Source: Candidatus Doudnabacteria bacterium RIFCSPHIGHO2_12_FULL_48_16 (GTDB lineage: Bacteria > Patescibacteriota > Doudnabacteria > UBA920 > O2-02-FULL-48-8). Taken from it: a DNA stretch of 64,000 bases. Below, piece after piece: positions 19,656 to 42,637 of the stretch (position 1 is its first letter; the number at the start of each line of letters is the position of its first letter). The stretch is from assembly GCA_001780035.1 (NCBI GenBank), contig MFEY01000007.1, positions 6,212-70,211 on the forward strand. The letters run 5' to 3'. The notes beneath the pieces are model-generated. The model ran no database searches. It had not been told where the DNA came from and saw only the letters and a list, made by a program, of their open reading frames with translations. A program made the position numbers and the translations under genes.

Positions 19656-20733
19656 TTAAGATTGCCTGCTCCACAAAGCGGTTGGCATAGCCGAATTCAT
19701 TGTCATACCAGGCCACAACCTTAACCATATCGCCGTCGACCACTTGGGTCAGGGACAAATCAACTACCGCGGAGTGCGGGTTACCAATGATATCAGAAGA
19801 AACGATTGGATCGGTCGTAACTTCCAGAATGTTTTTCCACATCGGATGCTTGGCCATCTCAATAAAAGCGTTGTTCACTTCCTCAACCGTGGTTCTTTTG
19901 TTCAACAGCGCGGTAAAATCTGAAAGAGAACCGCAGGCCACCGGCACCCGGAATGCAATTCCGCCAAACTCACCCTTGAGCTCCGGGATAACTTCAGTCG
20001 CCGCGATCGAGGCGCCGGTCGAGGTCGGTGTGATGTTGAAACCGGCGGCGCGCATTCGGCGCAGATCTTTATGCAATGGCGGCGGCGGCCCATCCACCAA
20101 ATTCTGCTCCACGGTCAGGGCATGAATCGTCGACATCATCATTTTTTTGACGCCAAACTTGCTATGCAGAATGGCTGCCACCGGCGTGATACAGTTGGTG
20201 GTGCAAGAGGCGTTGGAAATCACATTCTGGCCTTTGTATTGATCGCTGTTGACCCCCAAAATAAACGTCGGGGTAATTCCATCATCTTTCGCCGGGGCGG
20301 AAATAATGACTTTTTTGGCGCCGGCTTTGAGGTGAGCGGAGGCCAGCTCGGTGGTAATAAATCGGCCAGTCGATTCCAGCACCACGTCCACATTTAAATC
20401 CCGCCAGGGCAGCATAGCCGGGTCTTTTTCGGCGAAAATCGGAGTTTTCCGGCCATCGACGGTCAGTGTCCCGGCCGAAGAAATCAACGGGTTGGCTTTT
20501 TCTTTTTTGGTATCAAAACTCACCGGCTTGTCGTAAACGCCGTAGACCGAATCGTATTTTAAAAGGTTGGCCAGCACATCCGGTTCGGTCAGATCGTTGA
20601 TGGCCACCACCTGCAGTTCGGGTTTGGTCAGGGCAATTTTAAAGGCCTGCCTCCCGATCCGGCCAAATCCGTTGATCGCTATGCGAATTTTGCTCGCCCC
20701 GTTAGATTTTACAGAATTTTTATCGTTAATCAT
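19642..20733 (-). CDS. gap: Glyceraldehyde-3-phosphate dehydrogenase, type I
   Basis: INGFGRIGR Rossmann motif and the ASCTTNC active site. The N-terminal 14 aa (MINDKNSVKSNGAS) are encoded by the IR-A2 element, so the ancestral start is probably near KIRIAINGFGRIGR. Confidence 0.9.
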   Translation of the reverse strand: MINDKNSVKSNGASKIRIAINGFGRIGRQAFKIALTKPELQVVAINDLTEPDVLANLLKYDSVYGVYDKPVSFDTKKEKANPLISSAGTLTVDGRKTPIFAEKDPAMLPWRDLNVDVVLESTGRFITTELASAHLKAGAKKVIISAPAKDDGITPTFILGVNSDQYKGQNVISNASCTTNCITPVAAILHSKFGVKKMMMSTIHALTVEQNLVDGPPPPLHKDLRRMRAAGFNITPTSTGASIAATEVIPELKGEFGGIAFRVPVACGSLSDFTALLNKRTTVEEVNNAFIEMAKHPMWKNILEVTTDPIVSSDIIGNPHSAVVDLSLTQVVDGDMVKVVAWYDNEFGYANRFVEQAILIGKE

Positions 20734-20782
20734 AAGTTATCATCCCCGTATTGATTTTTCTAAAAAATCTAACGGGGTGAAT
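20697..20782 (-). mobile_element. IR-A2 element, copy 2, at the 5-prime end of gap
   Basis: Arms CCCCGTTAGATTTT / AAAATCTAACGGGG. The interior is homologous to the 42555-42637 copy, including an ATG that is in frame with gap. Confidence 0.5.
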
Positions 20783-20905
20783 TTATTTTACAATAGTTAA
20801 AAGAAACGCTGCCACAAACAGAGCCCACGCCATAAAAATGATATGTTCGGTGGGGTCCGAGAAATGGAAGTATTCATGCAATTTTTTGGTCTGCTTTTTT
20901 GCCAT
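20783..20905 (-). CDS. Possible 40-aa small membrane peptide
   Basis: MAKKQTKKLHEYFHFSDPTEHIIFMAWALFVAAFLLTIVK ends in a single hydrophobic helix. It sits between fba and gap. This is a weak call. Confidence 0.2.
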   Translation of the reverse strand: MAKKQTKKLHEYFHFSDPTEHIIFMAWALFVAAFLLTIVK

Positions 20906-20938
20906 TTGAATTATTCCTGGTGAATTAATTATTATTTT

Positions 20939-21820
20939 CTAAATTTGGTTGCTTGTTTTCAAAACCTTCAGCTTGTGTTCGGCGACCTTTTGTAAGGCGT
21001 CAGTCGCGGGGGCCAGGAGTTTTCGCGGATCATAGATTTGAGGATTCTTTTTGAGATTGGCCCTTAAAGCTTTGTTAAATGCCACTCGCAGATCGGTATC
21101 GATATTGAACACGGCGACATTAAATTTGATTGCCGCCCGCAGCTGGGCATCGGGCACGCCGGACGCGCCATGCACGACCAGGGGAATTTTGACCTTCTGC
21201 CGGATCGCGGCCAGACGTTTGAGATCGATATGCTCCCTCAGGGTGGTTAAAACTTTTTTAATTCGCGGATCAATCGGAATGCCGTGCATCGACCCCACGG
21301 CTACCGCCAGCGTATCGATTCGGGTTTGAGCCACAAAATCCGCGGCCTGATCCGGATCTGTCATCAAATCTTCCCCCGATTTCACGTTTTGCCAATCTTC
21401 GTTGCCGAGGATCCGGCCGAGTTCGGCCTGGACCCAGACTCCCCGCTTGTGCGCGTAAGCAACCACTTGTTTGGTCAGCTTCAAATTTTCTTTGTAGGGC
21501 AAATGCGAGGCATCAATCATGACCGAGCTATAACCGAGATCGATTAATTTTTTTAATAAATTAAAATCATGGCAATGATCCTGATGCAGAGCAATCGGCA
21601 CGCGGGCTTGCCGCGCTTCGGTTTTGATCAAACCAACCAGTTCTTCGATCCCGGCGTATTCGAGAGCGCCAACCGAGGTCTGGATGATGATTGGAGCTTT
21701 CTGCGCTTGTGCGGCTCTTACGATCCCCAGTGTGGTTTCCAAATCCTGGGTGTTGAATGCCGGCACGGCATATTTGCCGAGCATGTGTCTGTTGATCAGT
21801 TTGCCAATATGGACGAGCAT
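20939..21820 (-). CDS. fba: Fructose-bisphosphate aldolase, class II
   Basis: Class II FBA metal-binding motifs (…IALHQDHCHDF…, …HGASG…). 293 aa. Confidence 0.9.
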   Translation of the reverse strand: MLVHIGKLINRHMLGKYAVPAFNTQDLETTLGIVRAAQAQKAPIIIQTSVGALEYAGIEELVGLIKTEARQARVPIALHQDHCHDFNLLKKLIDLGYSSVMIDASHLPYKENLKLTKQVVAYAHKRGVWVQAELGRILGNEDWQNVKSGEDLMTDPDQAADFVAQTRIDTLAVAVGSMHGIPIDPRIKKVLTTLREHIDLKRLAAIRQKVKIPLVVHGASGVPDAQLRAAIKFNVAVFNIDTDLRVAFNKALRANLKKNPQIYDPRKLLAPATDALQKVAEHKLKVLKTSNQI

Positions 21821-22027
21821 TTAGAATTTGATTCCGGCCTTAAAGATATCCATCAGGCTGGGCAGTTTGGGGTTGCCGGCCTTGGGCTTGCAAACAGCAT
21901 AAATCAATTTGTATTCGCAATTAAAATTCTTCGCGGTCGAGGCGGTTAGGCCGCGCCAAAATATGAAGCCGAGCACTATTACTACAACCAGGATAATTCG
22001 ATTTCTCATTTTTTTCTTGATGTACAT
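21821..22027 (-). CDS. Small hypothetical secreted or membrane protein
   Basis: 68 aa with an N-terminal hydrophobic segment. Its stop abuts the fba start. Confidence 0.3.
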   Translation of the reverse strand: MYIKKKMRNRIILVVVIVLGFIFWRGLTASTAKNFNCEYKLIYAVCKPKAGNPKLPSLMDIFKAGIKF

Positions 22028-22032
22028 ATTAA

Positions 22033-22839
22033 TTATTGTATTTCAAGGGTGGATAATAGCTTTTGAAACTCAAGTTTCTTATGAGCTAAATCTGGATCCT
22101 TATCAGGATTTGGGATATAGAGCTCGAAGGCAATTCCTGAAAAATCCTTCGATGACTTGAGATTAAAAATAGCACCATAACGCCAGGGATAATACCACTC
22201 CATCCCGACGTAAGTTATAGGGTCAATAAAAATACCTGTAGTATTCACACCTGTAACCTCACTAATTAATTTGGAATCAAGCAGATATTTGGTGTTTTGA
22301 ATATATTTGAAGTAATATGCTGTAAGATTTTTAACGTAACCTGTACTATCAAAAAATTGTCCACCTCGATTAGTCTGGAAATCGGAACTAATGCCACCAA
22401 ATAATGCATAACGACTGTTTTGCCCTGGTGGTTTATAATATGCAGCAAATGTTTTCCCTTTGACCTGATCGGGATAAGATGTGTACCCGTAAGTTTCACC
22501 ATTTTTAATTTCGAGGGATATCTCGCCCCAATCGGATGGATATTCAAACTTTACCCCAAGCTCTTTACTTTCAAATGTCTTCCAGTTCAAGGTGTCATTT
22601 GTAGTTTCGGATTTTCTACAATTAGTTCCAGCATCAGGAAAATTGTCTTCCGGGATACAGGTATATCCAGAAGTCGGACAAGGAATGCCGGCAACACTAC
22701 CGCAAAAAATTTCACCTTTGTCTTGGTGGACCACTGGGCCTGGGATCGCCTGGTGCGCCACCTGCCAATAATAAAGCACTGACACGACTGCCGCGCCGAT
22801 CGCCACCAGAAATATGATTCCTAAAACTTTGTATTTCAT
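22033..22839 (-). CDS. Membrane-anchored extracytoplasmic protein, same family, paralog 2
   Basis: LNWKTFESKELGVKFEYPSDW motif with an N-terminal transmembrane segment. Its ATG overlaps the TGA of the upstream AbrB-like gene (ATGA). Confidence 0.5.
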   Translation of the reverse strand: MKYKVLGIIFLVAIGAAVVSVLYYWQVAHQAIPGPVVHQDKGEIFCGSVAGIPCPTSGYTCIPEDNFPDAGTNCRKSETTNDTLNWKTFESKELGVKFEYPSDWGEISLEIKNGETYGYTSYPDQVKGKTFAAYYKPPGQNSRYALFGGISSDFQTNRGGQFFDSTGYVKNLTAYYFKYIQNTKYLLDSKLISEVTGVNTTGIFIDPITYVGMEWYYPWRYGAIFNLKSSKDFSGIAFELYIPNPDKDPDLAHKKLEFQKLLSTLEIQ

Positions 22840-23009
22840 TTGGTTTTCTTATGTTTCGTCATGGCGTCCCGGATCGAAATGCCCCGGGGCATACGCTTCA
22901 CCAAAACCCTTTGTCGCTCGCGCCAGCCCAAGGTTTTCAGTAATTCTTTTGGAATTACAACGGCCAATGATCTTTTGCCAACTCTGGTTACTTTATAAAC
23001 GTTTTTCAT
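22836..23009 (-). CDS. AbrB/MazE/SpoVT-family small protein (57 aa, not in the ORF track)
   Basis: MKNVYKVTRVGKRSLAVVIPKELLKTLGWRERQRVLVKRMPRGISIRDAMTKHKKTK is a paralog of 18100-18279. It is translationally coupled to the downstream family member. Confidence 0.5.
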   Translation of the reverse strand: MKNVYKVTRVGKRSLAVVIPKELLKTLGWRERQRVLVKRMPRGISIRDAMTKHKKTK

Positions 23010-23092
23010 TTGCTTTTGCTACGTAGCATGCTACGTAATTATATTATTTTTTAGGGAGTTTTCTCGAAGCCAATTAGCAAGCTATCTAACAT

Positions 23093-23818
23093 TTATTTAC
23101 TAAATTTAAATGTTGAGAAAATTTGATTAAGCAAATCCATTCGGCCGGAAATATGATATACACGTCCACTTAATTCTGTTAAATAGTCTGAATCACCGAG
23201 TTTCGTCCAAGAAATTCCGTAATAATTTGCAGACGTTTCTGTTTTATTTTTTAAATACTGGTTATCTCTTTTCACTATTGCGAGTTGTGAATTATAAACA
23301 TCAACCCGGGCATTGAAATCTTGTACCGGATACCTCTCAAATATCGCCACAAAAGTTCGAGAATCTGGCATATAGTCAATAGAACTAGCTGGATATTCTT
23401 TTGCTGTCCAGGTTTTTGGATATTGGAACTCAAAACTATATTTTTCGCTGCAGTAAGTCTTAAATTCTCGAGTTTCAACAATACCTGTACAGAAATTGGT
23501 TGTACTTTCATGATGTATAATCTCGGATATAGATTTATCTGGCAAAAATTTTATCAGTAACACTAAACTTACAATACCAAGACCTAATAACGTTACCAAG
23601 ACCGAAGTTAATTTTGATTTCTTCCGCAATTGCCATGCAAATAGCATAAGCAGTATTACAAACATCAACGCTAGTAAATCTAAATTTTCAGTCAACCAAT
23701 TGCCTGAATTATCGCTAAAAGATGTCACTAGAACTAAAAAGAATACGAATCCGCCAAAAATAATCAGTCCAATTACGAACCAAAACCATCCTTCGTTCTT
23801 CTGATCTTGTGGGTTCAT
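23093..23818 (-). CDS. Membrane-anchored extracytoplasmic protein, same family, paralog 3
   Basis: …EFKTYCSEKYSFEFQYPKTW… and a C-terminus …IFSTFKFSK. Confidence 0.5.
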   Translation of the reverse strand: MNPQDQKNEGWFWFVIGLIIFGGFVFFLVLVTSFSDNSGNWLTENLDLLALMFVILLMLFAWQLRKKSKLTSVLVTLLGLGIVSLVLLIKFLPDKSISEIIHHESTTNFCTGIVETREFKTYCSEKYSFEFQYPKTWTAKEYPASSIDYMPDSRTFVAIFERYPVQDFNARVDVYNSQLAIVKRDNQYLKNKTETSANYYGISWTKLGDSDYLTELSGRVYHISGRMDLLNQIFSTFKFSK

Positions 23819-23906
23819 AAGCTATATTTCCCTTGCTCTAAATTTCGGATGCTTTTTCATATAGGCTTCGATTTCCGGAATTTTTATGATAAATGCTTTC
23901 ATAAAA

Positions 23907-24752
23907 TCAATAAAATTTGAAGCTGGAAAGGATTTGATTGATAGTTTCAATGTTATTAACAAATACTTGTCCTGCGGTGAAAACTTGCACTTCAACCACT
24001 TTTTGCTCATGCTCAAAGAAATAAAGATTACCACCACCAAAAACATTAGGTCCAGCTTCCGCCTTATATCCAATATTATCCCCGACTATTATCCTCTCCG
24101 CATTTATGATATAAGGATCTGGTCCTAAAGAATATTTGCTTATAAAATCATTTAAGTCTTTTGTTCCCAATTTTTTCCAGTCAAGTTGTGAAAGTTGAGA
24201 ATATAGAGTGGCTCTAAATAAGTAAGGTAAATCCGTGTCGACATGACTACTGGAAGAAACAGAAGGAGGATCAGCTAACAAGACATCAGCTCCCCTATTC
24301 GACAGGCTAGTTTGAAAATGCCAATCGCCTGGATACTTAAGCTCAAAACCGTATTTCTCATCCCTATATACTTTCCAATTCCCGGTTTCAGCAGCCTCCT
24401 TGGCCTTCCTTTGTTGTATTAGTTGGTCAGCATTATATAAAAAACTGTTTTGTGTACTTATGTTTTGCAAATACGAAATAGCGCCAAGTACTATTCCCAC
24501 AATTAATAATAAAACGGCATATTTAAAAATTTTCTTCCTGATATTTTCTTTCTTTATGGGGAGATCATGTGCTCCAACGAGTAATAATAGTCCTACCAAA
24601 AGCAACATGATAAGTATAAGATAGTTTCCTCCTGAATCGAGTTCTCCTAAAGCAGTCTTGACATAAAACCAAAAAGCAATTGATCCAAGGGCCAAAATAA
24701 CGAATGAAACGCCAATGATATATAATATAGTTTTTATCATTTTTATATTCAT
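23907..24752 (-). CDS. Membrane-anchored extracytoplasmic protein, same family, paralog 4
   Basis: …NWKVYRDEKYGFELKYPGDW… and a C-terminus …ILSSFKFY. Two N-terminal transmembrane helices. Confidence 0.5.
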   Translation of the reverse strand: MNIKMIKTILYIIGVSFVILALGSIAFWFYVKTALGELDSGGNYLILIMLLLVGLLLLVGAHDLPIKKENIRKKIFKYAVLLLIVGIVLGAISYLQNISTQNSFLYNADQLIQQRKAKEAAETGNWKVYRDEKYGFELKYPGDWHFQTSLSNRGADVLLADPPSVSSSSHVDTDLPYLFRATLYSQLSQLDWKKLGTKDLNDFISKYSLGPDPYIINAERIIVGDNIGYKAEAGPNVFGGGNLYFFEHEQKVVEVQVFTAGQVFVNNIETINQILSSFKFY

Positions 24753-24755
24753 AAT

Positions 24756-25196
24756 CTATATTTCTCTGGCTCGAAATTTCGGATGCGTCTTTAAATATTT
24801 TTCAATCTGCGGCCTGGTCTGTAGCCCGGCATGCGGCCCGATATGCATCACGACATTGCCGCCGTTTATAGTTCCCCAGGCCATAGCTTCTCCGACATTT
24901 TTTCCGTAAAAAATCGCGGCAGTAAATGCGGTGCCAAACGCGTCCCCGGCTCCGGTGGCTTCGATATGCGGGCCTACAAATTCATCCATTTTAAGCTGGC
25001 TACCAACCGCATCCAAGACTTCTGCGTCTATTTTATCTACAAGCTGAGACAAAATCGCGTCAAAACCCGCTGTTTCCAGCTTTAGTTCGTCTTTAGACAA
25101 TGGCCTATCCAAAGAGGATACTTTTACATCATGACCGGCCTGAGCCAATAAATCCAAACCTGTTTGTGGAATTTTTCTTGTAACGAATATTTTCAT
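24756..25196 (-). pseudogene. Chimeric gene remnant: an N-terminal fragment of a D-2-hydroxyacid dehydrogenase fused to the C-terminal third of a PfkB kinase
   Basis: MKIFVTRKIPQTGLDLLAQAGHDVKV…DKIDAEVLDAVGSQLK looks like a 2-Hacid_dh N-terminus. It is followed by GPHIEATGAGDAFGTAF…YLKTHPKFRAREI, which matches the last roughly 75 aa of the pfkB product at 25637-26611. A third 13-aa copy (…YMKKHPKFRAREI) ends ORF 23822-24073. Confidence 0.45.
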
Positions 25197-25208
25197 AGAA
25201 TTTTTTCT

Positions 25209-25317: not shown

Positions 25318-25359
25318 GTAATTTATTGATTAATTTTTCTTGTGACAAATATTTTCATG

Positions 25360-25635: not shown

Positions 25636-25636
25636 C

Positions 25637-28172: not shown

Positions 28173-29078
28173 CTATTCATGTTCGCTCCTAATCTTCCCT
28201 CCCAGGGTTCTTAATTCTTTTAAGGCAATATGGGCTTGCTCATTTTTCGGCGGCGCGCCGGACGGCTCGATTGTGCCTGGCGGGTTGCCATGCCACTCGT
28301 AGCGATATTCCATAAAATCCACGCCCTTGCCCGGAATGGTGTGGCAAATGATGACCGTGGGCTTTTCGTAGATGGCCTTGGCCTGATTGCAGGCGTCGAT
28401 AATCTCGCGCATGTTGTGCCCGTCGATTTCCAAAACATGCCAGCCAAACGCTTCCCATTTGGCCGCAAGAGGCTCGAGCGGCATAATGTCTTCCGTGTAG
28501 CCGTCAATCTGGATGTTGTTCCGGTCAATTAACGCGGTTAAATTCCGAAGTTTGTTTTTGGCCGCAAACATCGCGGCTTCCCAAGTCTGGCCTTCTTCCT
28601 GCTCACCGTCGGACATGACGCAATACACGCGCCATGGCTCTTGTTTTCCGCCAGAGGCGGATCCGCCTTTGGCGGACATTCTCAGCCCGACATAAGCCAT
28701 ACCGGCGGCCTGCGACAATCCCTGGCCCAAAGGCCCGGAAGAATTCTCGGCGCCCGGCAATTCCTCGCCGTGCGGATGGCCCTGCAGCCGGCTTCCCAGT
28801 TTGCGCAGCGTGGCCAATTCCGCATGGGGAAAAAATCCGGCATGAGCCAAAGTCGCATACCAGACCGGACAAATGTGCCCGCAGGACAGAACAAACCGGT
28901 CGCGATCGGCCGCCGCCGGATTCTTACCGTCGACATTCATGACCGCGAAATAAAGCGCCGTGAACACATCCGCCATGCCCAAAGGGCCGGCTGAGTGCCC
29001 GGACTTGGCATGCACCAGCATCTTAATAATATCCTGACGGATTTCGTTGGCTTTTTGTTCCAGTTGCTGAATGGTCAT
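28173..29078 (-). CDS. tktA: Transketolase N-terminal subunit (thiamine-diphosphate-binding)
   Basis: …SGHSAGPLGMADVF…GHPHGEELPGAENSSGPLGQGL… The start is trimmed to the MTIQQLEQKANEIRQ Met. Confidence 0.85.
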   Translation of the reverse strand: MTIQQLEQKANEIRQDIIKMLVHAKSGHSAGPLGMADVFTALYFAVMNVDGKNPAAADRDRFVLSCGHICPVWYATLAHAGFFPHAELATLRKLGSRLQGHPHGEELPGAENSSGPLGQGLSQAAGMAYVGLRMSAKGGSASGGKQEPWRVYCVMSDGEQEEGQTWEAAMFAAKNKLRNLTALIDRNNIQIDGYTEDIMPLEPLAAKWEAFGWHVLEIDGHNMREIIDACNQAKAIYEKPTVIICHTIPGKGVDFMEYRYEWHGNPPGTIEPSGAPPKNEQAHIALKELRTLGGKIRSEHE

Positions 29079-29309: not shown

Positions 29310-29439
29310 GTCTTTGCGAGGAACCGCTTTATTATTTTAGGTTTAACCTTGGCGGCGACGAAGCAATCTCTTTTAAGCGGCGAGATTGCTTCGCGGCGGC
29401 TTAAACTAATTCTTAATAAGTTCCGCCGCTCGCAAAGAC
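29310..29439. repeat. IR-B element, copy d
   Basis: gtctttgcgagg…cgaagcaatctcttttaagcggcgagattgcttcg…cgctcgcaaagac. Confidence 0.55.
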
Positions 29440-35749: not shown

Positions 35750-36328
35750 TTACTTAATTCCCAATTTTTTCAATATCTCCTGGTGCACAGCTTCAATCGG
35801 CTGATCGCCGTTAATGTGGATCAAAAAGCCCTTCTGTTCGTAATAATCCTTAACCGGAGCGGTTTTTAACATGTATTGATCGAATCTTTTTTCAACTACA
35901 GCCGGATCGTCATCCGCGCGGCCGGCAACTGAGCCGCGTTTGAGTATCCGGTCTTTTAATTTTTTCTTATCGACTTCCAAAAATAAAGCTTGAAGATTGC
36001 GAATCTCATACCTTTCCATTATGTTTTCGAGCAGTTGGGCTTGTTCAATCGTTCTGGGGTATCCATCCAAGATGACACCGGGTTTGTCGACCAGAGTTTC
36101 AAATTTTTTGGTAAAAATTTCCGTAATGATATCAATCGGCAAAATAAACCCCTGATCGATAATTGATTTTATCTTATGGCCAAAATCATCTTTATGAGTT
36201 GCATATTCGCGCGACAAGGCTCCGGTGCTGAAATATTCATAACCTGATTTTTTCGCTAAAAGTTCGGTCTGCGTTCCTTTGCCCGAACCGGGCGCGCCCA
36301 TGAAGACAATGATATTTTCGAGTTTCAC
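35750..36328 (-). CDS. adk: Adenylate kinase
   Basis: VFMGAPGSGKGTQ P-loop, …GFILDGYPRT… and the LID-region motifs. It uses a GTG start immediately after the IR-A arm. Confidence 0.9.
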   Translation of the reverse strand: MKLENIIVFMGAPGSGKGTQTELLAKKSGYEYFSTGALSREYATHKDDFGHKIKSIIDQGFILPIDIITEIFTKKFETLVDKPGVILDGYPRTIEQAQLLENIMERYEIRNLQALFLEVDKKKLKDRILKRGSVAGRADDDPAVVEKRFDQYMLKTAPVKDYYEQKGFLIHINGDQPIEAVHQEILKKLGIK

Positions 36329-36434
36329 CCCGTTAGAAATAATGATTAGTTAGTAACTGATTTAATTTATAATCTGTGCAATAAATACTCGTTGATCCTG
36401 TAGAATACTATGTGCAATTTCTAACAGGATTCAT
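36329..36434 (-). mobile_element. IR-A element, copy 2, upstream of adk
   Basis: Minus orientation: ATGAAT-CCTGTTAGAAAT…CTAACTAATCATT-ATTTCTAACGGG-GTGAAA. Confidence 0.55.
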
Positions 36435-36516
36435 GTAATTATTATAGCCAATTTTAAGCAAAATTTAAAGGGTCAACCGCTGTTGGCCCTTTAAATAATA
36501 CTGATTTAAATCAGTA

Positions 36517-37812
36517 TTAAAAATCCTCGTAGTCCCGCATGACCATTTGGGCCTGAACCTGTTTCATAACTTCGATCACCACCGCCACTACGATCAGAAG
36601 GCTGGTGCCGCCCAGAGCCAGACTCTGCGCACCGGTAAAGTATTGCATGATGTTTGGCAAAACCGCGATCAGGCCCAAAAAGATGGCGCCGACCAAAGTG
36701 ATCCGGTTTAAAACCTTATAGAGGAACTCGGCGGTTTGCCGGCCTGGCCGTAGGCCCGGAATGAATCCGCCTTGCTTCTGGATATTTTCCGAAATTTCAT
36801 CGGGATTGAATACGATGGCGGTATAGAAATAAGTAAAAGCCACAACCAAGATAAAGTAAATGATCCCCTGGTAAGTCTGGTTTTGGAAAAAAGTGTTTAG
36901 AGCCGTTGCAGCGTGAGCCAGCCAAACGGTTTTGGCGCTGGAAAAAAAGTTCGCGATCAAGCCCGGGAACAACAGGATGGAAATGGCAAAAATGATCGGA
37001 ATGACGCCGGCCTGGTTGACGCGCAGCGGCAGATGGGTGTTGACCCCGCCATACATTTTGTTGCCGCGAATCCGCTTGGCATACGACACCGGGATATTGC
37101 GCTGGGCTTCGGTAATCATAACCACTCCGGCAATAACCACCAATGCCAACGCCAGATACGACAATCCGGTGACCAAAGATTGCGGGCTGATTCCGCCCGA
37201 GGTGTTCAAGCTCAAGAATGATTGCTGGGCCACAACTGGAATGCGGGCAACGATCCCGGCAAAGATAATTAAGGAGATGCCGTTGCCAATTTTGAATTCC
37301 GAAATCATTTCGCCCAGCCAGAGCAACACCATGGTACCGGCCGTAACCGACAATAAGGTAATAAACCACTGAAACGGGCTGAAGTTCGAGGCAATGTTGG
37401 AACCGGCCTGCCGCGACAACAGCATAATCGTGCCGTAAGCCTGGATTGCAGCCAGCGGCACAGTCAAATATCGCATATATTGGTTGATTTTGGCCCGGCC
37501 CGCTTCGCCGCCTTCCTTGGACAGTTCCCCGAGCTTGGGGATGATCACGGTCAGCAACTGGATGATAATCGAAGCCGTGATGTAAGGCCCAACGCCGAGC
37601 ATAGCCACGGAAAAAGTGCTCAAGCCGCCGCCGGAAAAGATATCGAACAAGCCCAACAGCTGGTTGCTGTTGATCAATTGTCTCAAATCAGTGATGCCTA
37701 TTCCCGGAATCGGGATATGGGACAGGATTCTGGTGGCCACCAACAAACCCGCCACAATCAGAATTCGATTGCGAAGTTCTTTGACCTTCCAGATTTGAGA
37801 AATTCTCGACAT
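36517..37812 (-). CDS. secY: Preprotein translocase subunit SecY
   Basis: 431 aa with ten transmembrane segments and SecY-conserved loops. Confidence 0.9.
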   Translation of the reverse strand: MSRISQIWKVKELRNRILIVAGLLVATRILSHIPIPGIGITDLRQLINSNQLLGLFDIFSGGGLSTFSVAMLGVGPYITASIIIQLLTVIIPKLGELSKEGGEAGRAKINQYMRYLTVPLAAIQAYGTIMLLSRQAGSNIASNFSPFQWFITLLSVTAGTMVLLWLGEMISEFKIGNGISLIIFAGIVARIPVVAQQSFLSLNTSGGISPQSLVTGLSYLALALVVIAGVVMITEAQRNIPVSYAKRIRGNKMYGGVNTHLPLRVNQAGVIPIIFAISILLFPGLIANFFSSAKTVWLAHAATALNTFFQNQTYQGIIYFILVVAFTYFYTAIVFNPDEISENIQKQGGFIPGLRPGRQTAEFLYKVLNRITLVGAIFLGLIAVLPNIMQYFTGAQSLALGGTSLLIVVAVVIEVMKQVQAQMVMRDYEDF

Positions 37813-37816
37813 GATT

Positions 37817-38257
37817 TTAGCTGATCTTGCCGCCGGCCTTTTCGATTTTATCCTTCGCCGCGGCGGACACTAATACTTTTTCAAATGACAGGGACTTTTT
37901 AAGTTCGCCCTGATTGAGGATTTTGATCTTACCGTTGGCATCTTTAACCAAGCCCTTGTTGAACAAGGTTTTAGGATTAACCATTTCGCCGGCCTGAAAT
38001 TTCTGTTCCAGCAAATCCAGACTGATCGGTATGGCTTTGGGAATTCGGCTGGTAAAGCCGCGGCGCTTGGGAATCTGCCGGTGCAACGGCATGCGGCCGC
38101 CTTCAAAACCGACCGGAATTGAGGCGCCCGAACGGGCCAGCTGGCCCTTGGCGCCGCGGCCCGAAAAGGTGCCGTGGCCGGAGCCAACACCACGTCCGAC
38201 AGTTTTGCGGCGCTTGGTTGATCCCTTGTATGGCCTGAGTTCAGAGAGTTTCAGCAT
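37817..38257 (-). CDS. rplO: 50S ribosomal protein L15
   Basis: MLKLSELRPYKGSTKRRKTVGRGVGSGHGTFSGRG. It directly follows rpsE with no L30 gene between them. Confidence 0.9.
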   Translation of the reverse strand: MLKLSELRPYKGSTKRRKTVGRGVGSGHGTFSGRGAKGQLARSGASIPVGFEGGRMPLHRQIPKRRGFTSRIPKAIPISLDLLEQKFQAGEMVNPKTLFNKGLVKDANGKIKILNQGELKKSLSFEKVLVSAAAKDKIEKAGGKIS

Positions 38258-38258
38258 A

Positions 38259-38762
38259 TTATTTCTTAAAATTCAGCATGGTGTCTTTGGACTTCATTTT
38301 AGACAAAGCCAGATAGGTCGCCATGACATTATTTACCTTGTTGGAAGAACCGATCATTTTCGACAGCACATTCTTGACGCCGACCAAGTCGAGCACCTGG
38401 CGGATCGAGCCGCCGGCGATAATTCCCGTGCCCGGCCGGGCCGGTTTGAGAAAGACCACCGAGGATTTATACTTCAGCTTCATTTCGTGCGGAATGGTAT
38501 CGTTGACCAGGTTGATGCTCACCAGAGTTTTCTTGGCCGCGTTAACCGCCTTGTTCACAGCTTCCGAAACATCGGCGCCTTTGCGCAGACCGATGCCCAC
38601 CCGCCCTTTTTTGTCCCCGATCACCACTAGGGCGCGGAAACGCATGCGCTTGCCGCCAGCGACCACGCGCGTCACGCGCTTGATCTCGACGATCTTTTGC
38701 TCAAATTCTCTGGGGCCCTGTTCGCCTTGGCGGCCGCGACCGCGGCCTCTGTTAAATGCCAT
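38259..38762 (-). CDS. rpsE: 30S ribosomal protein S5
   Basis: …RVTRVVAGGKRMRFRALVVIGDKKGRVGIG…. Confidence 0.9.
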   Translation of the reverse strand: MAFNRGRGRGRQGEQGPREFEQKIVEIKRVTRVVAGGKRMRFRALVVIGDKKGRVGIGLRKGADVSEAVNKAVNAAKKTLVSINLVNDTIPHEMKLKYKSSVVFLKPARPGTGIIAGGSIRQVLDLVGVKNVLSKMIGSSNKVNNVMATYLALSKMKSKDTMLNFKK

Positions 38763-38781
38763 AAAGATTCTTTCTTCTCTT

Positions 38782-38945
38782 TCTTCTCCCCTTGCGGGAG
38801 AAGATGTCAGCCTTAGAGATTTTATTAAAGCCGGCTGACAGATGAGGGGTATCTAAGGGTTAGTAGGCTCCTAAATCACCCTCACCTGTCACTCAACGAA
38901 GTTGAGTGACATCCTCTCCCGTCAAGGGAGAGGATAAAACTGAAA
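38782..38945. repeat. SR-C structured repeat, copy 1, upstream of rpsE
   Basis: Modules: TCTTCTCCC-cttgc-GGGAGAAGA, tgtcagc…gctgacagatg, gaggggtatctaag…, aaatcaccctcacctgtc…, ATCCTCTCCC-gtcaa-GGGAGAGGAT. Confidence 0.6.
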
Positions 38946-38952
38946 GTTACGT

Positions 38953-39294
38953 TTAAAACTCCAATCCCGCAGCGCGAGCGCTGTCAGCTAATTCTTTTAC
39001 CCGGCCGTGATACTGGTATCCGCCGCGGTCAAACACAACTTTTTTAATCCCGGCCGCCTGGGCTTTCTGGGCGGCGAGCTTGCCGACCTCAACCGAGGCC
39101 TGCTTCTTGCTGTTTTTACCCTTAAGTTCCGAACTGGCGGCGCTGGCCATGGTCTTACCGTTTTCATCATCGATGAATTGCACGTAAATCTGGCTTAACG
39201 ATCGGAAAACATTCATGCGCGGAACTTGCGCCGTTCCTTTGACTTTCGAGCGAATCCGGTTATGTCTAAATTTTCTCTGGGTTCTTTTGTTCAT
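38953..39294 (-). CDS. rplR: 50S ribosomal protein L18
   Basis: …RPRLSVFRSLKHIYAQ…-type L18. 113 aa. Confidence 0.9.
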
Positions 39295-39314
39295 AGAATT
39301 ATAATTTCTAGATT

Positions 39315-39869
39315 CTATTTTCCGCCTCCGACGGCCTTAACGACTTTGCCCGCTTTACGCCGAATAACTTCATCGGAATATTTTATGCCTTTGCCCTTGT
39401 AAGGCTCCGGTTCCCGCTGGGAGCGCACAACAGCCGCAAACTGGCCGACCAACTGGCGGTCAATGCCGGCTACGGTCATAACGTTCTTTTCCACTTTGAC
39501 GTCCAGACCATCCGGGATTTCCATTTCAATCGGGTGCGAATAACCAAGATTCATGACCAATTTTTTTCCGGTCACCGCGGCTTTGTAACCGACCCCGTTG
39601 ATTTCCAAGGTTTTGCTAAACCCGGCGGTCACACCAGAGACCATATTGTTAATCAGCGCGCGCGATAATCCCCACAACGCCCGTTCGCTCTTTACCTTCT
39701 CGTTTTTTACGCTGACGACCAGATCCTGGCCATTCTGAGCAACAGTAACTTTGGGATGAACATGCAGCGTTAATTCGCCCTTGGGTCCTTTGACCTTCAG
39801 AGTCTGATCCTGAATCTCGGCGGTCACACCGGATGGCAGGGTTACTGGTTTTTTACCGATTCTGCTCAT
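39315..39869 (-). CDS. rplF: 50S ribosomal protein L6
   Basis: [33 protein letters not shown]…. Confidence 0.9.
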
Positions 39870-39887
39870 TTGATTCTTTCTTCTTGT

Positions 39888-40036
39888 TCTTCTCCCCTTG
39901 CGGGAGAAGATGTCAGCGTTATTTGGGTTATTATTAGTCGCTGACAGATGAGGGGTATCTAAGCTTACTTAGCTCTTAAATCACCCTCACCTGTCCCGAC
40001 TTTGTCGGGACATCCTCTCCCGTTGAGGGAGAGGAT
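39888..40036. repeat. SR-C structured repeat, copy 2, upstream of rplF
   Basis: About 96% identical over roughly 150 nt to copy 3 (40469-40617). Same module order, with an inner hairpin gtcccgac-tttgtc-gggac. Confidence 0.65.
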
Positions 40037-40052
40037 TAAGCTGAAAATTACA

Positions 40053-40451
40053 TTACCAAATTTGGCAGACAATTTCGCCGCCGACTTTGGCCTTGCGGGC
40101 TTCCTTGTCCGTCATTAATCCTTTCGAAGTCGAAACTACCGTGGTGCCCATGCTGCCCATGACACGCGGCAAATTTTCCCGGGAAGCATAAATACGCTGT
40201 CCCGGCTTGCTGACCCGTTTGATGCCGGAAATCGTCGGTTGGCCGGAGGCATCGTATTTGAGCTGCAGCATCAAATTTTTGAAGCCGCCGTCTTCCGACA
40301 CTTCCACTTTCTTAATCCAGCCTTCTGTTTCCAGAACTTTGGCCAGGCTGAGCTTGAAATTGGAGTGCGGCAAAGAAACTTCGCTCTTGCGGGCGAGCAA
40401 TGCATTGCGAATGCGGGTTAGCATATCTGAAATTGTGTCGTTCATCGTCAT
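40053..40451 (-). CDS. rpsH: 30S ribosomal protein S8
   Basis: MTMNDTISDMLTRIRNALLARK…. Confidence 0.9.
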   Translation of the reverse strand: MTMNDTISDMLTRIRNALLARKSEVSLPHSNFKLSLAKVLETEGWIKKVEVSEDGGFKNLMLQLKYDASGQPTISGIKRVSKPGQRIYASRENLPRVMGSMGTTVVSTSKGLMTDKEARKAKVGGEIVCQIW

Positions 40452-40468
40452 AAGGTTTTTTCTTATTT

Positions 40469-40617
40469 TCTTCTCCCCTTGCGGGAGAAGATGTCAGCGT
40501 TATTTGGGTTATTATTAGTCGCTGACAGATGAGGGGTATCTAAGCTTACTTAGCTCTTAAATCACCCTCACCTGTCCCGACTTTGTCGGGACATCCTCTC
40601 CCGTTGAGGGAGAGGAT
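40469..40617. repeat. SR-C structured repeat, copy 3, upstream of rpsH
   Basis: Near-identical to copy 2. It ends …caaggggagaagaaaataagaaaaaacctt just before the ATG. Confidence 0.65.
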
Positions 40618-40633
40618 TAAGCTGAAAATTACA

Positions 40634-40828
40634 TTACCAGGAAGATTTAACTATACCGGGGATTTCACCATTGGAAGCCAGTTCTCGGAAACAAATGCGG
40701 CAGATATCAAAATCGCGCATATAACCATGCTTGCGGCCACAGCGCCAGCAGCGGCGCACGACCCGGGTCGAATATTTCGCCTGGGTGCGGGATTTAAGAG
40801 ATTTTAAGTATTGAGCCTTGGTTGCCAT
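40634..40828 (-). CDS. rpsZ: 30S ribosomal protein S14, type Z (zinc-binding)
   Basis: 64 aa with CWRCGRKHGYMRDFDICRICFRE, a CxxC…CxxC zinc motif. Confidence 0.9.
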   Translation of the reverse strand: MATKAQYLKSLKSRTQAKYSTRVVRRCWRCGRKHGYMRDFDICRICFRELASNGEIPGIVKSSW

Positions 40829-40833
40829 AGTTG

Positions 40834-41370
40834 TTATTTGGAAAACGGGAACCCTAATGATTTAAGAAGCGCTAAAGCCTGTTTGTCATCGTCAGTCGAA
40901 GTTTGGATGTTAACTTCCAGGCCGAAAGTGTATTCAAAGTGTTCCCGCGTGGTCTCCGGAAATACAATCTGCTCCCGCAGACCAATGTTGTAGTTACCAT
41001 GGCCGTCAAATTTCTTGGGATCCAGGCCGCGGAAATCGCGAACGCGAGGAAGAGCAACCTTCACCAGTTTTTCCAAAAAATCATACATTCGATTGCCGCG
41101 CATGGTGACGACCAGACCAACTACCTGCCCCTCGCGGATTTTAAACCCGGCGATGGATTTCTTGGCCAGGGTTTTGACCGGAGTTTGGCCGGTAATGCGC
41201 TTGACGTCTTCCACAATCGCCTCGAGCATTTTGGCATCTTTCAATGTTTTACCGACGCCGACATTGACCACAACTTTCTGGATTTTCGGTACAGCCATAA
41301 CATTGCCCAAATGCAAATCCTGCATCAGGCTCTTGGTTACTTTTTCTTTGTATAAAGTCTTGAAATTCAT
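40834..41370 (-). CDS. rplE: 50S ribosomal protein L5
   Basis: MNFKTLYKEKVTKSLMQDLHLGNVMAVPKIQKVVVNVGVG…. Confidence 0.9.
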   Translation of the reverse strand: MNFKTLYKEKVTKSLMQDLHLGNVMAVPKIQKVVVNVGVGKTLKDAKMLEAIVEDVKRITGQTPVKTLAKKSIAGFKIREGQVVGLVVTMRGNRMYDFLEKLVKVALPRVRDFRGLDPKKFDGHGNYNIGLREQIVFPETTREHFEYTFGLEVNIQTSTDDDKQALALLKSLGFPFSK

Positions 41371-41476
41371 CCCGTTAGAAATAATAATTAGTTAATCGAC
41401 AATCTTTGTTATAGCCAGCCCGTTGAATATTATGCTCACTATTGGTTAAATATGCAAAATTTCTAACGGGATTCAT
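41371..41476 (-). mobile_element. IR-A element, copy 3, between rplX and rplE
   Basis: TAA-TGAAT-CCCGTTAGAAAT…TTAACTAATTATT-ATTTCTAACGGG-ATGAAT: a perfect 6-bp direct repeat ATGAAT flanks a 14-bp inverted repeat. Removing the element and one repeat gives TAATGAAT, the common TAATG stop-start overlap. Confidence 0.6.
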
Positions 41477-41781
41477 TAGATTACCTTTCCACACTTTTTA
41501 CATTTGCGAAAATTGCCGCGATCGGAAAGTTCGCGTCCGACCCGGGTCGGCTTGCCGCAGAGGGGGCAAATTAACTGAGTTTTGGAAGCATCGATCGCCC
41601 CAGGAAGTTCCAAGCGCTGTCCTTTTTCGCCCTGCCGTTTCGGCCGAGAAAATCGGACCCGGATGTGCAGCCCTTCGACGACCAGCTTGCCGGTTTTGGG
41701 AAACACGTCCAAAACCTTGCCGGTCTTACCCCGTTCTTTGCCTGCCAAAATTTTAACTGTATCGCCTTTCTTTATTCTCAT
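41476..41781 (-). CDS. rplX: 50S ribosomal protein L24
   Basis: MRIKKGDTVKILAGKERGKTGKVL… is the KOW motif. Confidence 0.9.
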   Translation of the reverse strand: MRIKKGDTVKILAGKERGKTGKVLDVFPKTGKLVVEGLHIRVRFSRPKRQGEKGQRLELPGAIDASKTQLICPLCGKPTRVGRELSDRGNFRKCKKCGKVI

Positions 41782-41794
41782 ATAATTCTTAATT

Positions 41795-41880
41795 TACGTC
41801 TACGAACTTACGAAATTTTTACGAAAATACGAAGTGAGCTAACCCTTTTCGTATGTTCGTATTCTGTTCGTAATTTCGTA
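41795..41880. repeat. Long imperfect hairpin built from iterated TACGAA (x4) and TTCGTA (x4) units, between rplN and rplX
   Basis: ctacgaacttacgaaatttttacgaaaatacgaag-tgagctaaccctt-ttcgtatgttcgtattctgttcgtaatttcgtag. The same TTCGTAAT unit is the recJ heptamer repeat. Confidence 0.55.
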
Positions 41881-41884
41881 GCCA

Positions 41885-42256
41885 TTACACTACTTCTTCG
41901 GCTAATGAAATAATTTTAGTGAACCCCAGATCGCGCAACTCCCTCGGCATCGGGCCAAAAATACGGGTGCCCCGCGGTTCCGGATCATCTTTGTTAACCA
42001 AAACTGCGGCGTTGTCATCAAATCTGATGTAAGATCCGTCAGAGCGGCGCACTTCCTTGCGGGTGCGGACGATCACGGCGTAAACCTTATCGCCCTTCTT
42101 GACTTGGCCTTTCGGACTGGCGATTTTGACGGAAGCGGAGATAACATCACCGATCGTCGCGAAACGGCGCTTGTTTTTCCCGTTCACGCTAAAAGCCGCG
42201 ATCTCGCGAGCGCCGGTATTATCTGCAACTTTTAAACGTGTTCTTAACTGTATCAT
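41885..42256 (-). CDS. rplN: 50S ribosomal protein L14
   Basis: [19 protein letters not shown]…. Confidence 0.9.
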
Positions 42257-42315
42257 AATTTATTAGGTTGTTGTCCGCCGGAGGCGGATCCGCCTTTGGC
42301 GGAAATCATAAAATA

Positions 42316-42588
42316 TTAAATCTTGCTGACAACTTTCCAATTAACGGTTTTACTGTAAGGCCGGGATTCTTCGATTATGACCTTATCGCCGATTTTCAAT
42401 CCTTCCAAATCGTTATGGGAAGGGTATTTCTTTGAAACCGTGTAGCGCTTGTGATACTTCGGGTGCACTTTCACGGAATCGACTTCCACGATGACCGTCT
42501 TGGTCATTTTGTCGGAAATAACCCTGCCGGTTAATTTTCTGTGAATCTTATTCACCCCGTTAGATTTTACTGAATTATTATCTGTCAT
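42316..42588 (-). CDS. rpsQ: 30S ribosomal protein S17, with about 10 extra N-terminal residues encoded by an IR-A2 element
   Basis: MTDNNSVKSNGVN-KIHRKLTGRVISDKMTKTVIV… The S17 core starts at KIHRKLTGRVISDK. An alternative GTG at 42553-42555 directly follows the inverted-repeat arm. Confidence 0.85.
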   Translation of the reverse strand: MTDNNSVKSNGVNKIHRKLTGRVISDKMTKTVIVEVDSVKVHPKYHKRYTVSKKYPSHNDLEGLKIGDKVIIEESRPYSKTVNWKVVSKI

Positions 42589-42637
42589 AATTTTCTGCTT
42601 ATCCCATTGATTTTTCTAAAAATCTAACGGGGTCAAT
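42555..42637 (-). mobile_element. IR-A2 element, copy 1, between rpmC and rpsQ
   Basis: Minus orientation: TAA-TATTGA-CCCCGTTAGATTTTT…TTATGACAGATAATAATTCAGT-AAAATCTAACGGGG-TGAAT. The interior is homologous to the gap copy. Confidence 0.55.

Follow-up and report, generated by a model that had tools for sequence, protein, structure and literature searches.

In the window, the 64,000-nucleotide stretch of contig MFEY01000007.1 from Candidatus Doudnabacteria bacterium RIFCSPHIGHO2_12_FULL_48_16 that we analyzed, two copies of a short inverted-repeat element, A2, lie directly before gap, which encodes glyceraldehyde-3-phosphate dehydrogenase (GAPDH), and rpsQ, which encodes ribosomal protein S17. 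These copies are very probably members of a large family, resembling the miniature transposable elements with inverted repeats called MITEs, that gives host genes both a start codon and an N-terminal tag. A preliminary description of this DNA had presented A2 as a two-copy element, but a relaxed search of the window recovers exactly six elements, the two A2 copies and four sister copies termed IR-A (arms CCCGTTAGAAAT / ATTTCTAACGGG), and at least 118 other loci were identified in other genomes.

Results

Two A2 copies with in-frame ATG codons

All feature positions are read on the minus strand, and element bounds are the arms including the terminal C and G. Both A2 copies, before gap and before rpsQ, were confirmed at the positions first reported for them, with in-frame ATGs and with arms that are complementary over 14 of 14 nt and exact at all four places; the extra 5 nt originally assigned to each element are flank, the element itself ending at the arms. 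The interiors of the two copies are homologous, as had been proposed, with 79% identity over 52 nt, and ACA in one stands against ATTAAC in the other, a 3-nt indel that keeps the frame. The gap copy reads TTCAC-CCCGTTAGATTTT-TTAGAAAAATCAATACGGGGATGATAACTT-ATG ATT AAC GAT AAA AAT TCT GTA AAA TCT AAC GGG GCG AGC AAA ATT CGC, and the open reading frame (ORF) beginning at its ATG (19642..20733) translates as MINDKNSVKSNGAS-KIRIAINGFGRIGR. The rpsQ copy reads TTGAC-CCCGTTAGATTTT-TAGAAAAATCAATGGGATAAGCAGAAAATT-ATG ACA GAT AAT AAT TCA GTA AAA TCT AAC GGG GTG AAT AAG ATT CAC, and the corresponding ORF (42316..42588) translates as MTDNNSVKSNGVN-KIHRKLTGRVISDK.

A search of the window for the arm with at most two mismatches gave five matches against 0.95 expected, and none of 100 shuffles reached five. 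The fifth match (50022-50035) was set aside as chance; it falls inside a putatively EF-Tu-like coding sequence. All six window elements share one orientation relative to their genes, and in every one the first base after GGG is the gene start position, occupied by ATG in three cases, by GTG in two and by GCG in the case of gap. Approximately 9% of the genes in the window carry a copy.

The start of GAPDH

Of 120 homologs that are 73-91% identical to the window GAPDH, 118 begin M-x-K-I-[RK]-[IV]-A-I-N-G-F-G, two residues before the KIR core, and the closest (91%) begins MSKINIAING. The 12-residue leader is found only in the window protein among the 120, while P0064 (locus L131) has MISNG; the extension is thus specific to this lineage, as had been anticipated. 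What was ancestrally ATG AGC AAA now reads GCG AGC AAA, and the element ATG is the sole ATG, GTG or TTG upstream of the GAPDH Rossmann strand, in agreement with the earlier remark that gap has no good alternative start. Position 1 of the Gp_dh_N profile aligns at residue 16 of the protein, and the ORF is intact and 100% covered by GAPDH domains. Four independent assemblies from different samples agree at every base of the 121-nt gap region, and the 363-aa GAPDH is recorded on at least 24 contigs. Because the junction codon is GCG and 118 of 120 homologs start two residues before the core, GAPDH would have to start at the element ATG. We infer that the element supplies the start of gap, since no other route to the full-length enzyme is visible.

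The family across genomes

We scanned one genome per species with the pattern CCCGTTAGAWWT-N53-83-AWWTCTAACGGG, for which approximately 2 loci are estimated by chance; the family statistics given below (121-122 copies) rest on the matches listed. Among these, most come from Patescibacteria of many classes, with further ones from Deltaproteobacteria/Thermodesulfobacteriota, Planctomycetota, Omnitrophota, Stahlbacteria, KSB1 and others. The elements are 76-107 nt long and contain only short leaders or upstream open reading frames (uORFs). Their termini have the form Y-CCCGTTAGA(AAT/TTT)...(ATT/AAA)TCTAACGGG-R, the arm pair also being written Y-CCCGTTAGAAAT...ATTTCTAACGGG-R; the family terminus motif is YCCCGTTAGAWWT, and the terminal inverted repeats of A2 and IR-A are 12-14 bp long. 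The base to the left of CCC is complementary to the base to the right of GGG (C-G or T-A) in 114 of the 122 copies listed, and these bases are therefore part of the inverted repeat. Just after the 5′ arm comes, in each element, the pseudo-arm, a third and degenerate copy of the arm, which in most family members resembles AACGGGG. In 57 of the 121 copies listed, the first base 3′ of the arm is exactly where an ORF of at least 50 aa begins.

Several further observations concern individual copies. The IMG/VR viral collection contains three arm-pair matches on two contigs (L132, L133 and L134), and the viral copy L133 reads ATG ATT TCT AAC GGG GTG with a Shine-Dalgarno-like GAGGGGGG upstream. Tandem or nested copies occur at L006 (7674-7895), L104 (6362-6571), L034 (6517-7099), L096 (7795-7890) and L021 (2335-2437); each insertion re-creates its own target 4-mer beside itself, which could favor such arrays. 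Complete tRNA-Val genes lie exactly between A2-type arms (CCCGTTAGATTT...AAATCTAACGGG) at L017 (432-538, anticodon GAC) and L061 (5519-5621, anticodon CAC), in genomes labeled Spirochaetia and Saccharibacteria, respectively; here the arms could be a processing stem, or a MITE could be carrying the tRNA.

Internal ATG codons and the open frame

To examine the reading frame, we selected the copies that lead into an ORF of 100 codons or more, taken in the frame where the arm reads TCT AAC GGG, and grouped them by junction codon. The other two frames are closed, one by TAA in the arm and the other by TGA in RTGA. An in-frame open internal ATG is present in 2 of 35 copies with an ATG junction, for which shuffled interiors predict 5.6, as compared to 17 of 23 with a GTG junction (4.0 expected, maximum 10 in 500) and 12 of 18 with other junctions (GTA, GCG, ACA, GTT, GGC or ATT; 2.9 expected, maximum 9). 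Non-ATG junctions (29 of 41) differ from ATG junctions (2 of 35) at p = 3.8e-9 by Fisher's exact test, and no frame-disrupting variation was seen among the copies. The ATGs located no more than 48 nt from the arm divide between in frame and out of frame as 20:9 for GTG junctions and 12:5 for the others, against 6:17 for ATG junctions. The internal ATG stands 0-8 codons 5′ of the 3′ arm. The six GTG-junction copies of 23 without one, which include that before an adenylate kinase-like gene in the window, presumably use the GTG.

All five GCG-junction copies with a long ORF (window gap, L071, L092, L098 and L106) have an in-frame internal ATG. As a separate observation, the right flank GCGAG recurs in five copies, namely, window gap (20692-20697), L071, L098, L007 and L076. 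The ancestral start at the GCGAG flanks of window gap, L071 and L098 was probably ATGAG, and a change from GTG to GCG appears to have been repeated at these junctions.

The proteins themselves point in the same direction. Where no start codon stands at the junction, 0-5 residues separate the leader from Pfam domains that align from profile position 1-2, and there is therefore no room for a downstream start. The joins between leader and domain include ..ISNG-VHFIGIGGIG in a Mur ligase, ..ISNG-VNIIIMGPQG in an adenylate kinase and ..ISNG-VKLSIVIPAY in a GT2 protein, and DegV and GATase_5 proteins provide others. Copies also lie inside genes of other genomes, after codon 4 of rpsQ and of gap, where the junction codons are GTA and ATT rather than ATG, GTG or TTG. 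On the 355-kb contig of L123, with rpmC-rpsQ-rplN intact, an A2 copy inside rpsQ gives ATG GAT AAA GTAAA|C-CCCGTTAGATTTT...ATG ACA AAC GAT AAT AAC ACT GTA AAA TCT AAC GGG-G|TAAA G CGA CAA, with the junction GTA. The old rpsQ ORF stops at a TAA after 10 codons and only the segment from ATG to 3′ arm is open, so that as judged from this sequence, the L123 S17 (MTNDNNTVKSNG-VKRQLTG...) can start only at the element ATG. At L131, an IR-A-type copy follows codon 4 of gap, and the protein begins MISNG-IKIAINGFG.

Across five A2 copies, the sole length change 3′ of the ATG is of 3 nt, and third-position changes at codons 6 and 7 (AAT/AAC, TCA/TCT, ACA/ACT) are synonymous; the non-coding stretch from pseudo-arm to ATG measures 10, 10, 12, 12 and 14 nt in the same copies. 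On these comparisons, the internal ATG is under selection and is in some copies the sole candidate start.

The start of S17

For rpsQ, two candidate starts have to be weighed. Most S17 relatives are 78-80 aa long and begin MDKI[HR]RKLTG. Three S17 proteins in the database carry M[IN]NDNNTVKSNGVDK, and their loci L121 and L127 have both arms. Homologs with the leader MxNDNNTVKSNG (L121, L123 and L127) have both arms in all cases; a leader without the inverted repeats, which would have made it an old feature rather than one borne by the element, was never seen. The former upstream ATG has become ATT in the window and in L127 (ATTGAC), whereas L121 keeps ATGGAC. The window S17 probably starts at the element ATG with GTG as a fallback. 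Two points favor use of the ATG: L123 has to translate the leader, and every rpsQ copy has preserved the frame.

It is conceivable, though we think it unlikely, that S17 starts instead at the junction GTG, the equivalent of the ancestral ATG GAC AAG, and that the ATG and leader are untranslated baggage of the subfamily. The GTG occupies exactly the ancestral position and is a codon at which bacteria can initiate, the resulting 79-aa form fits the 78-80 aa of most homologs, the exact 90-aa protein is not among the database matches, and the six GTG-junction copies without an internal ATG, that before the adenylate kinase-like gene among them, would follow the same pattern. In L123, however, the GTA junction makes translation of the same leader necessary. 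Moreover, the ATG and its frame are retained in all rpsQ copies (window, L121, L123 and L127) with only the 3-nt indel between them, and of the two start codons ATG is the stronger and is placed within an A/U-rich loop. Because the former upstream start is lost (ATT), no coupling to rpmC would bring ribosomes to the GTG. The suggestion that A2 donates starts to essential genes is thus supported for gap, whereas at rpsQ the junction GTG is also a possible start. As to the alternative start that the preliminary description saw at rpsQ right after the arm, a GTG does stand at the junction, but there is no TTG, and the 3′ arm ends with the initial G of the GTG (42555). We also observe that the end of the 3′ arm together with the GTGA junction of C..G-type copies (window 42551-42558), GGGGUGA, resembles the Shine-Dalgarno complement GGAGGUGA with one G-U pair.

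Empty sites and target duplication

The flanks of the elements carry the marks of insertion. Flanking hexamers follow R-T-x-y-A-Y on the left and R-T-x-y-A-N on the right, and the 4-mer at flank positions 2-5 is the same on both sides in 69 of the 122 copies listed (permutation, 24 expected, maximum 36 in 5000 trials). The commonest flank 4-mers among the copies listed are TGAA (34), TAAA (20) and TGGA (5); within one genome, they differ from copy to copy (TGAA, TGGA, TGAG) yet match across each copy. The three ATG-junction IR-A copies of the window have ATGAA on both sides; at the copy before the adenylate kinase-like gene, the left side is ATGAA and the right side GTGAA. At rpsQ, the duplication has decayed to TTGA and TGAA where relatives have TGGA.

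Empty sites are found in relatives. L119, the closest relative among the loci compared, with 82-94% identity in L14, L24, L29 and S17, has empty sites at rpmC-rpsQ, rplX-rplE and rplP-rpmC. At rpmC-rpsQ, its sequence (CCAAATAATATGGACAAGATTCAC; ...CCAAATAAT ATGGAC AAGATTCAC) corresponds to ATTGAC and GTGAAT around the element in the window, and L119 has ATG GAC AAG ATT CAC at the junction position. At rplX-rplE, the empty site (ATCTAATGAATTTCAAG; ...ATCTA ATGAAT TTCAAG) is matched in the window by ATGAAT-[element]-ATGAAT TTC, and at rplP-rpmC (TAATTTTATGAAAATGAAAG; ...TTT ATGAAA ATGAAAG) by ATGAAT-[element]-ATGAAA. The sixth base of the left flank at rplP-rpmC, T, is derived from the element because the target had A. 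Likewise, L121 has ATGGAC on the left of rpsQ and GTGGAT on the right, and the first base of this right flank, G, is element-derived because the target had A. For gap, the empty site is in the more distant relative L130, where aldolase, small membrane ORF and gap follow one another as in the window and the uninterrupted sequence reads ...GGAAATAAC ATG GAC AAG ATA AAA ATC. These sites support the proposal that the element is mobile and was inserted, the simplest model being an element Y-CCC...GGG-R with a 4-bp duplication. A 6-bp duplication (RTNNAY) was considered and dropped; the empty rplP-rpmC and rpsQ sites fit 4 bp with Y..R termini. The A2 copy at rpsQ is present in more distant relatives and absent from the closest, L119, a distribution that calls either for more than one insertion at this site or for precise loss.

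The TAAA-type copies of Deltaproteobacteria and Omnitrophota are intergenic, several of them directly 5′ of a Shine-Dalgarno sequence. In several TAAA-type copies of Deltaproteobacteria and Stahlbacteria (L008, L009, L060 and L091), we observe that directly after the right flank GTAAA comes a Shine-Dalgarno-like AGGAGG or AGGTGG and then the gene start, so that in those phyla the element adjoins a ribosome-binding site upstream and not a start codon. We interpret the duplicated motif T-R-R-A, often after A or G, as a sequence preference rather than recognition of start codons. The association with start codons would be best explained by a target motif that resembles common gene starts (ATGAA) together with selection removing other insertions in compact genomes. 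ATGAA would be a common gene start (Met-Lys or Met-Asn) in the A/T-rich and tightly packed genomes of Patescibacteria, insertions at other ATGAA sites would interrupt genes, and copies bearing an ATG would widen the range of tolerated sites to a gene's first few codons.

Discussion

A model for start-codon donation

From the comparative data, we infer a model that acts at the level of translation. Insertion would duplicate approximately 4 bp of target with the consensus T-R-R-A. An element landing in A|TGAA at a gene start would leave the old ATG in the upstream copy of the target, and the new start codon would consist of the element's last base (A or G) and the duplicated TG. Copies of the T..A type, to which the four IR-A copies of the window are assigned, would regenerate ATG in this way. 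Copies of the C..G type, A2 included, would regenerate only GTG, and these would rely on an A/U-rich stretch and an ATG of their own, 0-8 codons before the 3′ arm and in the one frame that is open through it (xxx TCT AAC GGG, giving I/K-S-N-G). Ribosomes would begin at the element ATG, cross the 3′ arm and enter the host ORF, and the protein would gain an M-x(0-8)-[IK]SNG tag. The open frame through the arm would also let such copies survive insertion a few codons inside a gene.

The RNA offers two folds. Pairing of the arms gives the minimum-free-energy fold (-22 to -33 kcal/mol; z = -2.8 to -5.4), in which the AUG lies in a large A/U-rich loop; the region before the A2 AUG is itself A/U-rich (...AAAATT ATG). 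A local hairpin of 5′ arm and pseudo-arm reaches -11 to -13 kcal/mol, and this hairpin would form first during transcription, freeing the AUG and the 3′ arm. Transcription of a leaderless mRNA from an internal promoter was considered and rejected, as the spacing is inconsistent between copies and a consensus scan found no promoter-like site in either A2.

Several observations weigh against this reading. The paired-arm fold would bury leader codons 8-12, and no clear Shine-Dalgarno sequence precedes the A2 ATGs, where only a weak GGGA or GGAG is found 10-15 nt upstream. Membership in subfamilies accounts for part of the link between junction type and internal ATG, and the copies behind the junction counts are therefore not fully independent observations. 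A duplication cannot be recognized around the A2 copy at gap, which has TTCA to its left and CGAG to its right. In the window and approximately 1 Mb of loci, no convincing case was found of two arms 300-5000 nt apart enclosing a transposase; mobility is deduced only from empty sites and target duplications because no transposase or autonomous partner was found. Finally, the arms are perfectly conserved whereas the interiors are only 65-80% identical, a pattern that could reflect selection for a function in the host and not transposition.

This last pattern leads to an alternative that we consider improbable, in which the arms are not transposon ends but form a cis-acting RNA hairpin, conserved by selection at gene starts and spread mainly through vertical descent or recombination, that serves, for example, as a translational operator, as a stem for RNase III processing or to stabilize the mRNA. 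Perfect arms around drifting interiors would be expected of such a hairpin, as would the single orientation of all six window copies relative to genes, the two mutually exclusive folds (long-range stem, or local hairpin of 5′ arm and pseudo-arm) and the want of a transposase among our findings; at L017 and L061, the same arms bracket tRNA-Val as a processing stem would. It does not sit well with presence/absence polymorphism and duplicated target 4-mers between close relatives, with copies in unrelated phyla, beside unrelated genes and inside coding regions, or with tandem and nested copies. A search of the window against Rfam 15 at the gathering threshold matched only a flavin mononucleotide (FMN) riboswitch, and even at E ≤ 5, no family matched any element. 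A regulatory role would, moreover, be compatible with a mobile origin.

Far less probable still is removal or skipping of the element at the RNA level, by precise excision between direct repeats or by ribosomal bypassing from the left repeat copy to the right one, of the kind known from T4 gene 60 and from byp elements of yeast mitochondria, which would restore the original N terminus and make the internal ATG irrelevant. The duplication does leave matched codons on either side (for example, GTA AAx in L123), and a strong hairpin directly follows the left repeat copy. Skipping, however, does not account for the enrichment of in-frame open ATGs where the junction is not ATG, in the window gap and rpsQ copies either the upstream ATG or the duplication is gone, leaving no take-off site, and no ribozyme or intron family matched. 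That sequencing or assembly introduced the GCG at the gap junction by error, or that gap is a pseudogene, so that the dependence on the ATG is an artefact of the one base (GTG versus GCG) on which the argument hangs, can be given virtually no credence in view of the four identical assemblies, the contigs recording the same protein, the intact and fully domain-covered ORF, and four GCG-junction copies from other genomes that all have an in-frame ATG.

The IR-A copies show arrangements of their own. Before rplE and rpmC, the kept upstream ATGAAT opens uORFs of 34 and 33 codons, respectively (MNPVRNF...), both of which end at the TAA of the 3′ arm with the real ATG 4 nt further on, and in the remaining out-of-frame reading the stop is the TGA of ATGA. 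Owing to these stops in the arm and in ATGA, ribosomes entering the element would be released beside the true start, which looks like an arrangement suited to termination-reinitiation coupling. A promoter-like site at 36441-36469 (minus strand; TTTAAA, 17-nt spacer, TATAAT) ends 6 nt before the upstream ATGAAT of the IR-A copy at the adenylate kinase-like gene. This gene may originally have been transcribed as a leaderless mRNA, with the element now separating that start from the gene. An asymmetry of the outer stem pair between G-U and A-C (17 versus 8) is confounded by start-codon constraints and was not used.

Comparison with known repeats

By structure, the family is a MITE, showing five of the six defining features. 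It resembles bacterial MITEs such as the Correia/NEMIS elements of Neisseria, Nezha of cyanobacteria and MITEAba12 in its size (approximately 80-105 nt), its lack of a transposase ORF, its terminal inverted repeats, short target duplication and many copies per genome, its filled and empty sites between relatives, and its possible co-transcription and long hairpin fold. Correia elements duplicate TA. The termini of the present family and its duplication of approximately 4 bp (T-R-R-A) match none of these elements; in contrast to them, it spans several phyla, many of its copies abut a start codon exactly, and the last base of the element completes that codon.

Start-donating repeats had been thought unusual, a view that must be qualified, as MITE reading frames fused to host ORFs have been reported (PMC3184786), and the Neisseria REP2 repeats and similar Borrelia repeats, 120-150 bp long, lie immediately upstream of genes (PMC3184786). 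REP2 appears to be the closest functional analogue, with an ATG inside the repeat fused in frame to the downstream ORF as in A2. It differs in having no terminal inverted repeats or mobility signature, in carrying a promoter and a ribosome-binding site and in being confined to Neisseria (PMC3184786), whereas A2 has terminal repeats, duplications, empty sites and, by consensus scan, no promoter-like site. Rickettsia palindromic elements, selfish palindromes of approximately 100-150 bp, are tolerated in essential genes, where they are in frame and translated (PMC3184786, citing Ogata et al. 2000). The likeness lies in this tolerance within essential genes by staying in frame. Those elements are inserted internally and translated in full; here, only the segment from ATG to 3′ arm would be translated, replacing or extending the N terminus and giving the start. 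Host range and sequence also differ, and translation of the whole element is not found here, the frame of the 5′ arm being closed.

Other classes of mobile DNA fit less well. REPIN/RAYT and IS200/IS605-derived elements are likewise hairpin doublets of approximately 100 nt, and the flanks TTCA and TTAC (other strand) resemble IS200/IS605 targets, but those systems have no true duplication and a fixed end sequence, and REP-type GTAG heads are absent here. This model was not adopted because flank 4-mers vary within a genome yet match on both sides. An integron attC site was also rejected: A2 has GTTAGAT and ATCTAAC, but in reversed order with GTT/AAC pointing outward, while attC (5′-RYYYAAC...GTTRRRY-3′) has them inward. 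The IS1380 family makes 4-5 bp duplications and has ends starting with CC, and the end of ISEcp1 contains TAGATT, which is also present in the A2 arm. IS1380/ISEcp1 is a conceivable parent family. The resemblance is that of a mobile element bringing expression signals to an adjacent gene; IS1380/ISEcp1 elements differ in that they donate promoters and not start codons, measure 1.5-2 kb and encode a transposase. Distinctive of the present family are a start codon that the terminus completes, one open frame leading through an inverted repeat, the dependence of essential genes and the spread across phyla. The arm sequence was absent from the literature searched, in which work on MITEs of the candidate phyla radiation and on start-codon MITEs did not describe the family and work on IS1380 gave no usable lead, and a 2026 preprint on intergenic features makes no mention of it.

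Window features and neighboring repeats

The coordinates of the elements and their parts are collected in Table 1. The 547-aa and 146-aa ORFs that flank the copy at 14954..15056 are, by eye from their translations, phosphoglycerate mutase-like and response-regulator-like, respectively.

Table 1. Positions of A2 and IR-A elements and their parts in the window
Feature	Position	Strand	Remarks
A2 element before gap	20697..20777	-	81 nt including terminal C and G; exact 14-nt arms
5′ arm, gap copy, CCCCGTTAGATTTT	20764..20777	-	
Pseudo-arm inside gap copy, AAAAATCAATACGGGG	20744..20759	-	Degenerate third arm copy; local pairing with 5′ arm possible, -13.2 kcal/mol
Element-internal ATG, gap copy	20731..20733	-	Opens ORF 19642..20733
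3′ arm, gap copy, AAAATCTAACGGGG	20697..20710	-	Reads K-S-N-G; final G is first base of junction codon
gap junction codon GCG (Ala)	20695..20697	-	Relatives have the ATG of M-S-K-I-R here
GAPDH core coding sequence, SKIRIAINGFGRIGR... through stop codon	19642..20694	-	
A2 element before rpsQ	42555..42632	-	78 nt
5′ arm, rpsQ copy	42619..42632	-	
Pseudo-arm inside rpsQ copy, AAAAATCAATGGG	42603..42615	-	Local hairpin, -10.9 kcal/mol
Element-internal in-frame ATG, rpsQ copy	42586..42588	-	Leader MTDNNSVKSNG; also in L121, L123 and L127
3′ arm, rpsQ copy	42555..42568	-	K-S-N-G if ATG used
rpsQ junction codon GTG	42553..42555	-	G from element terminus, TG from duplicated target; possible S17 start
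Left flank ATTGAC of rpsQ copy	42633..42638	-	Decayed upstream copy of original ATGGAC; old start codon now ATT
IR-A between rplP and rpmC	42821..42919	-	Flanks ATGAAT / ATGAAA
IR-A between rplX and rplE	41370..41471	-	Direct repeat ATGAAT; uORF ends at arm TAA
IR-A before adenylate kinase-like gene	36328..36429	-	Junction GTG, no internal ATG; gene label from N-terminal sequence only
IR-A between 547-aa upstream ORF and 146-aa ORF	14954..15056	-	Junction ATG

Other repeats occupy the same region. A composite repeat of approximately 180 nt with the hairpins CTTCTCCCCTTGCGGGAGAAG and GGACATCCTCTCCCGTTGAGGGAGAGGAT occurs at 38766-38950, 39872-40058, 40453-40639 and 59233-59395 and takes up the spacers S5-L18, L6-S8 and S8-S14 within the ribosomal protein operon. 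It includes an exact 172-nt duplicate (39887-40058 and 40468-40639), and its fourth, partial copy adjoins the FMN riboswitch (RF00050, 59401-59548, minus strand, 87.7 bits). A family of GC-rich palindromes (TCCGCCGGAGGCGGATCCGCCTTTGGCGGA) is found at 28641-28679, 42268-42308 and 45113-45154, one of them in the rpsQ-rplN spacer directly 3′ of the S17 gene. A hairpin repeat, CGAAGCAATCTC...GAGATTGCTTCG, lies at 18003-18052 and 29344-29393 and also at approximately 1230-1290 of the related Doudnabacteria contig L130. A tRNA scan of the window found no tRNA genes.

Implications

More speculatively, and with considerable doubt, the family may be a dedicated portable cassette for translation starts whose termini combine recombination sites, the open S-N-G frame and the first base of a start codon. 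If so, the cassette could settle at the 5′ ends of housekeeping genes without lethal effect on hosts whose genomes are streamlined, and decay of the old start would leave the host gene dependent on it, an addiction without a toxin. The two alternative hairpins could then form a translational switch shared by dozens of essential genes, a MITE-built regulon that reaches across phyla.

At the level of the genes themselves, gap and rpsQ, which are essential, as well as Mur-ligase-family and adk genes whose essentiality is unproven, appear to depend on the start codon of a mobile element in uncultivated bacteria. This would be a natural example of host genes locked to selfish DNA and a more systematic route to tolerated insertion than the sporadic MITE-ORF fusions described so far. 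It also matters for annotation, as gene callers pick different starts (79 or 90 aa for S17), list spurious N-terminal SNG tags or overlook them, and call uORFs. The presence of the same 12-nt termini in Patescibacteria, Thermodesulfobacteriota, Planctomycetota and Omnitrophota of similar habitats may serve as a marker for horizontal exchange and points to a transposase. Lastly, a sequence of approximately 80 nt that confers initiation could serve as a genetic part in organisms for which there are no genetic tools.

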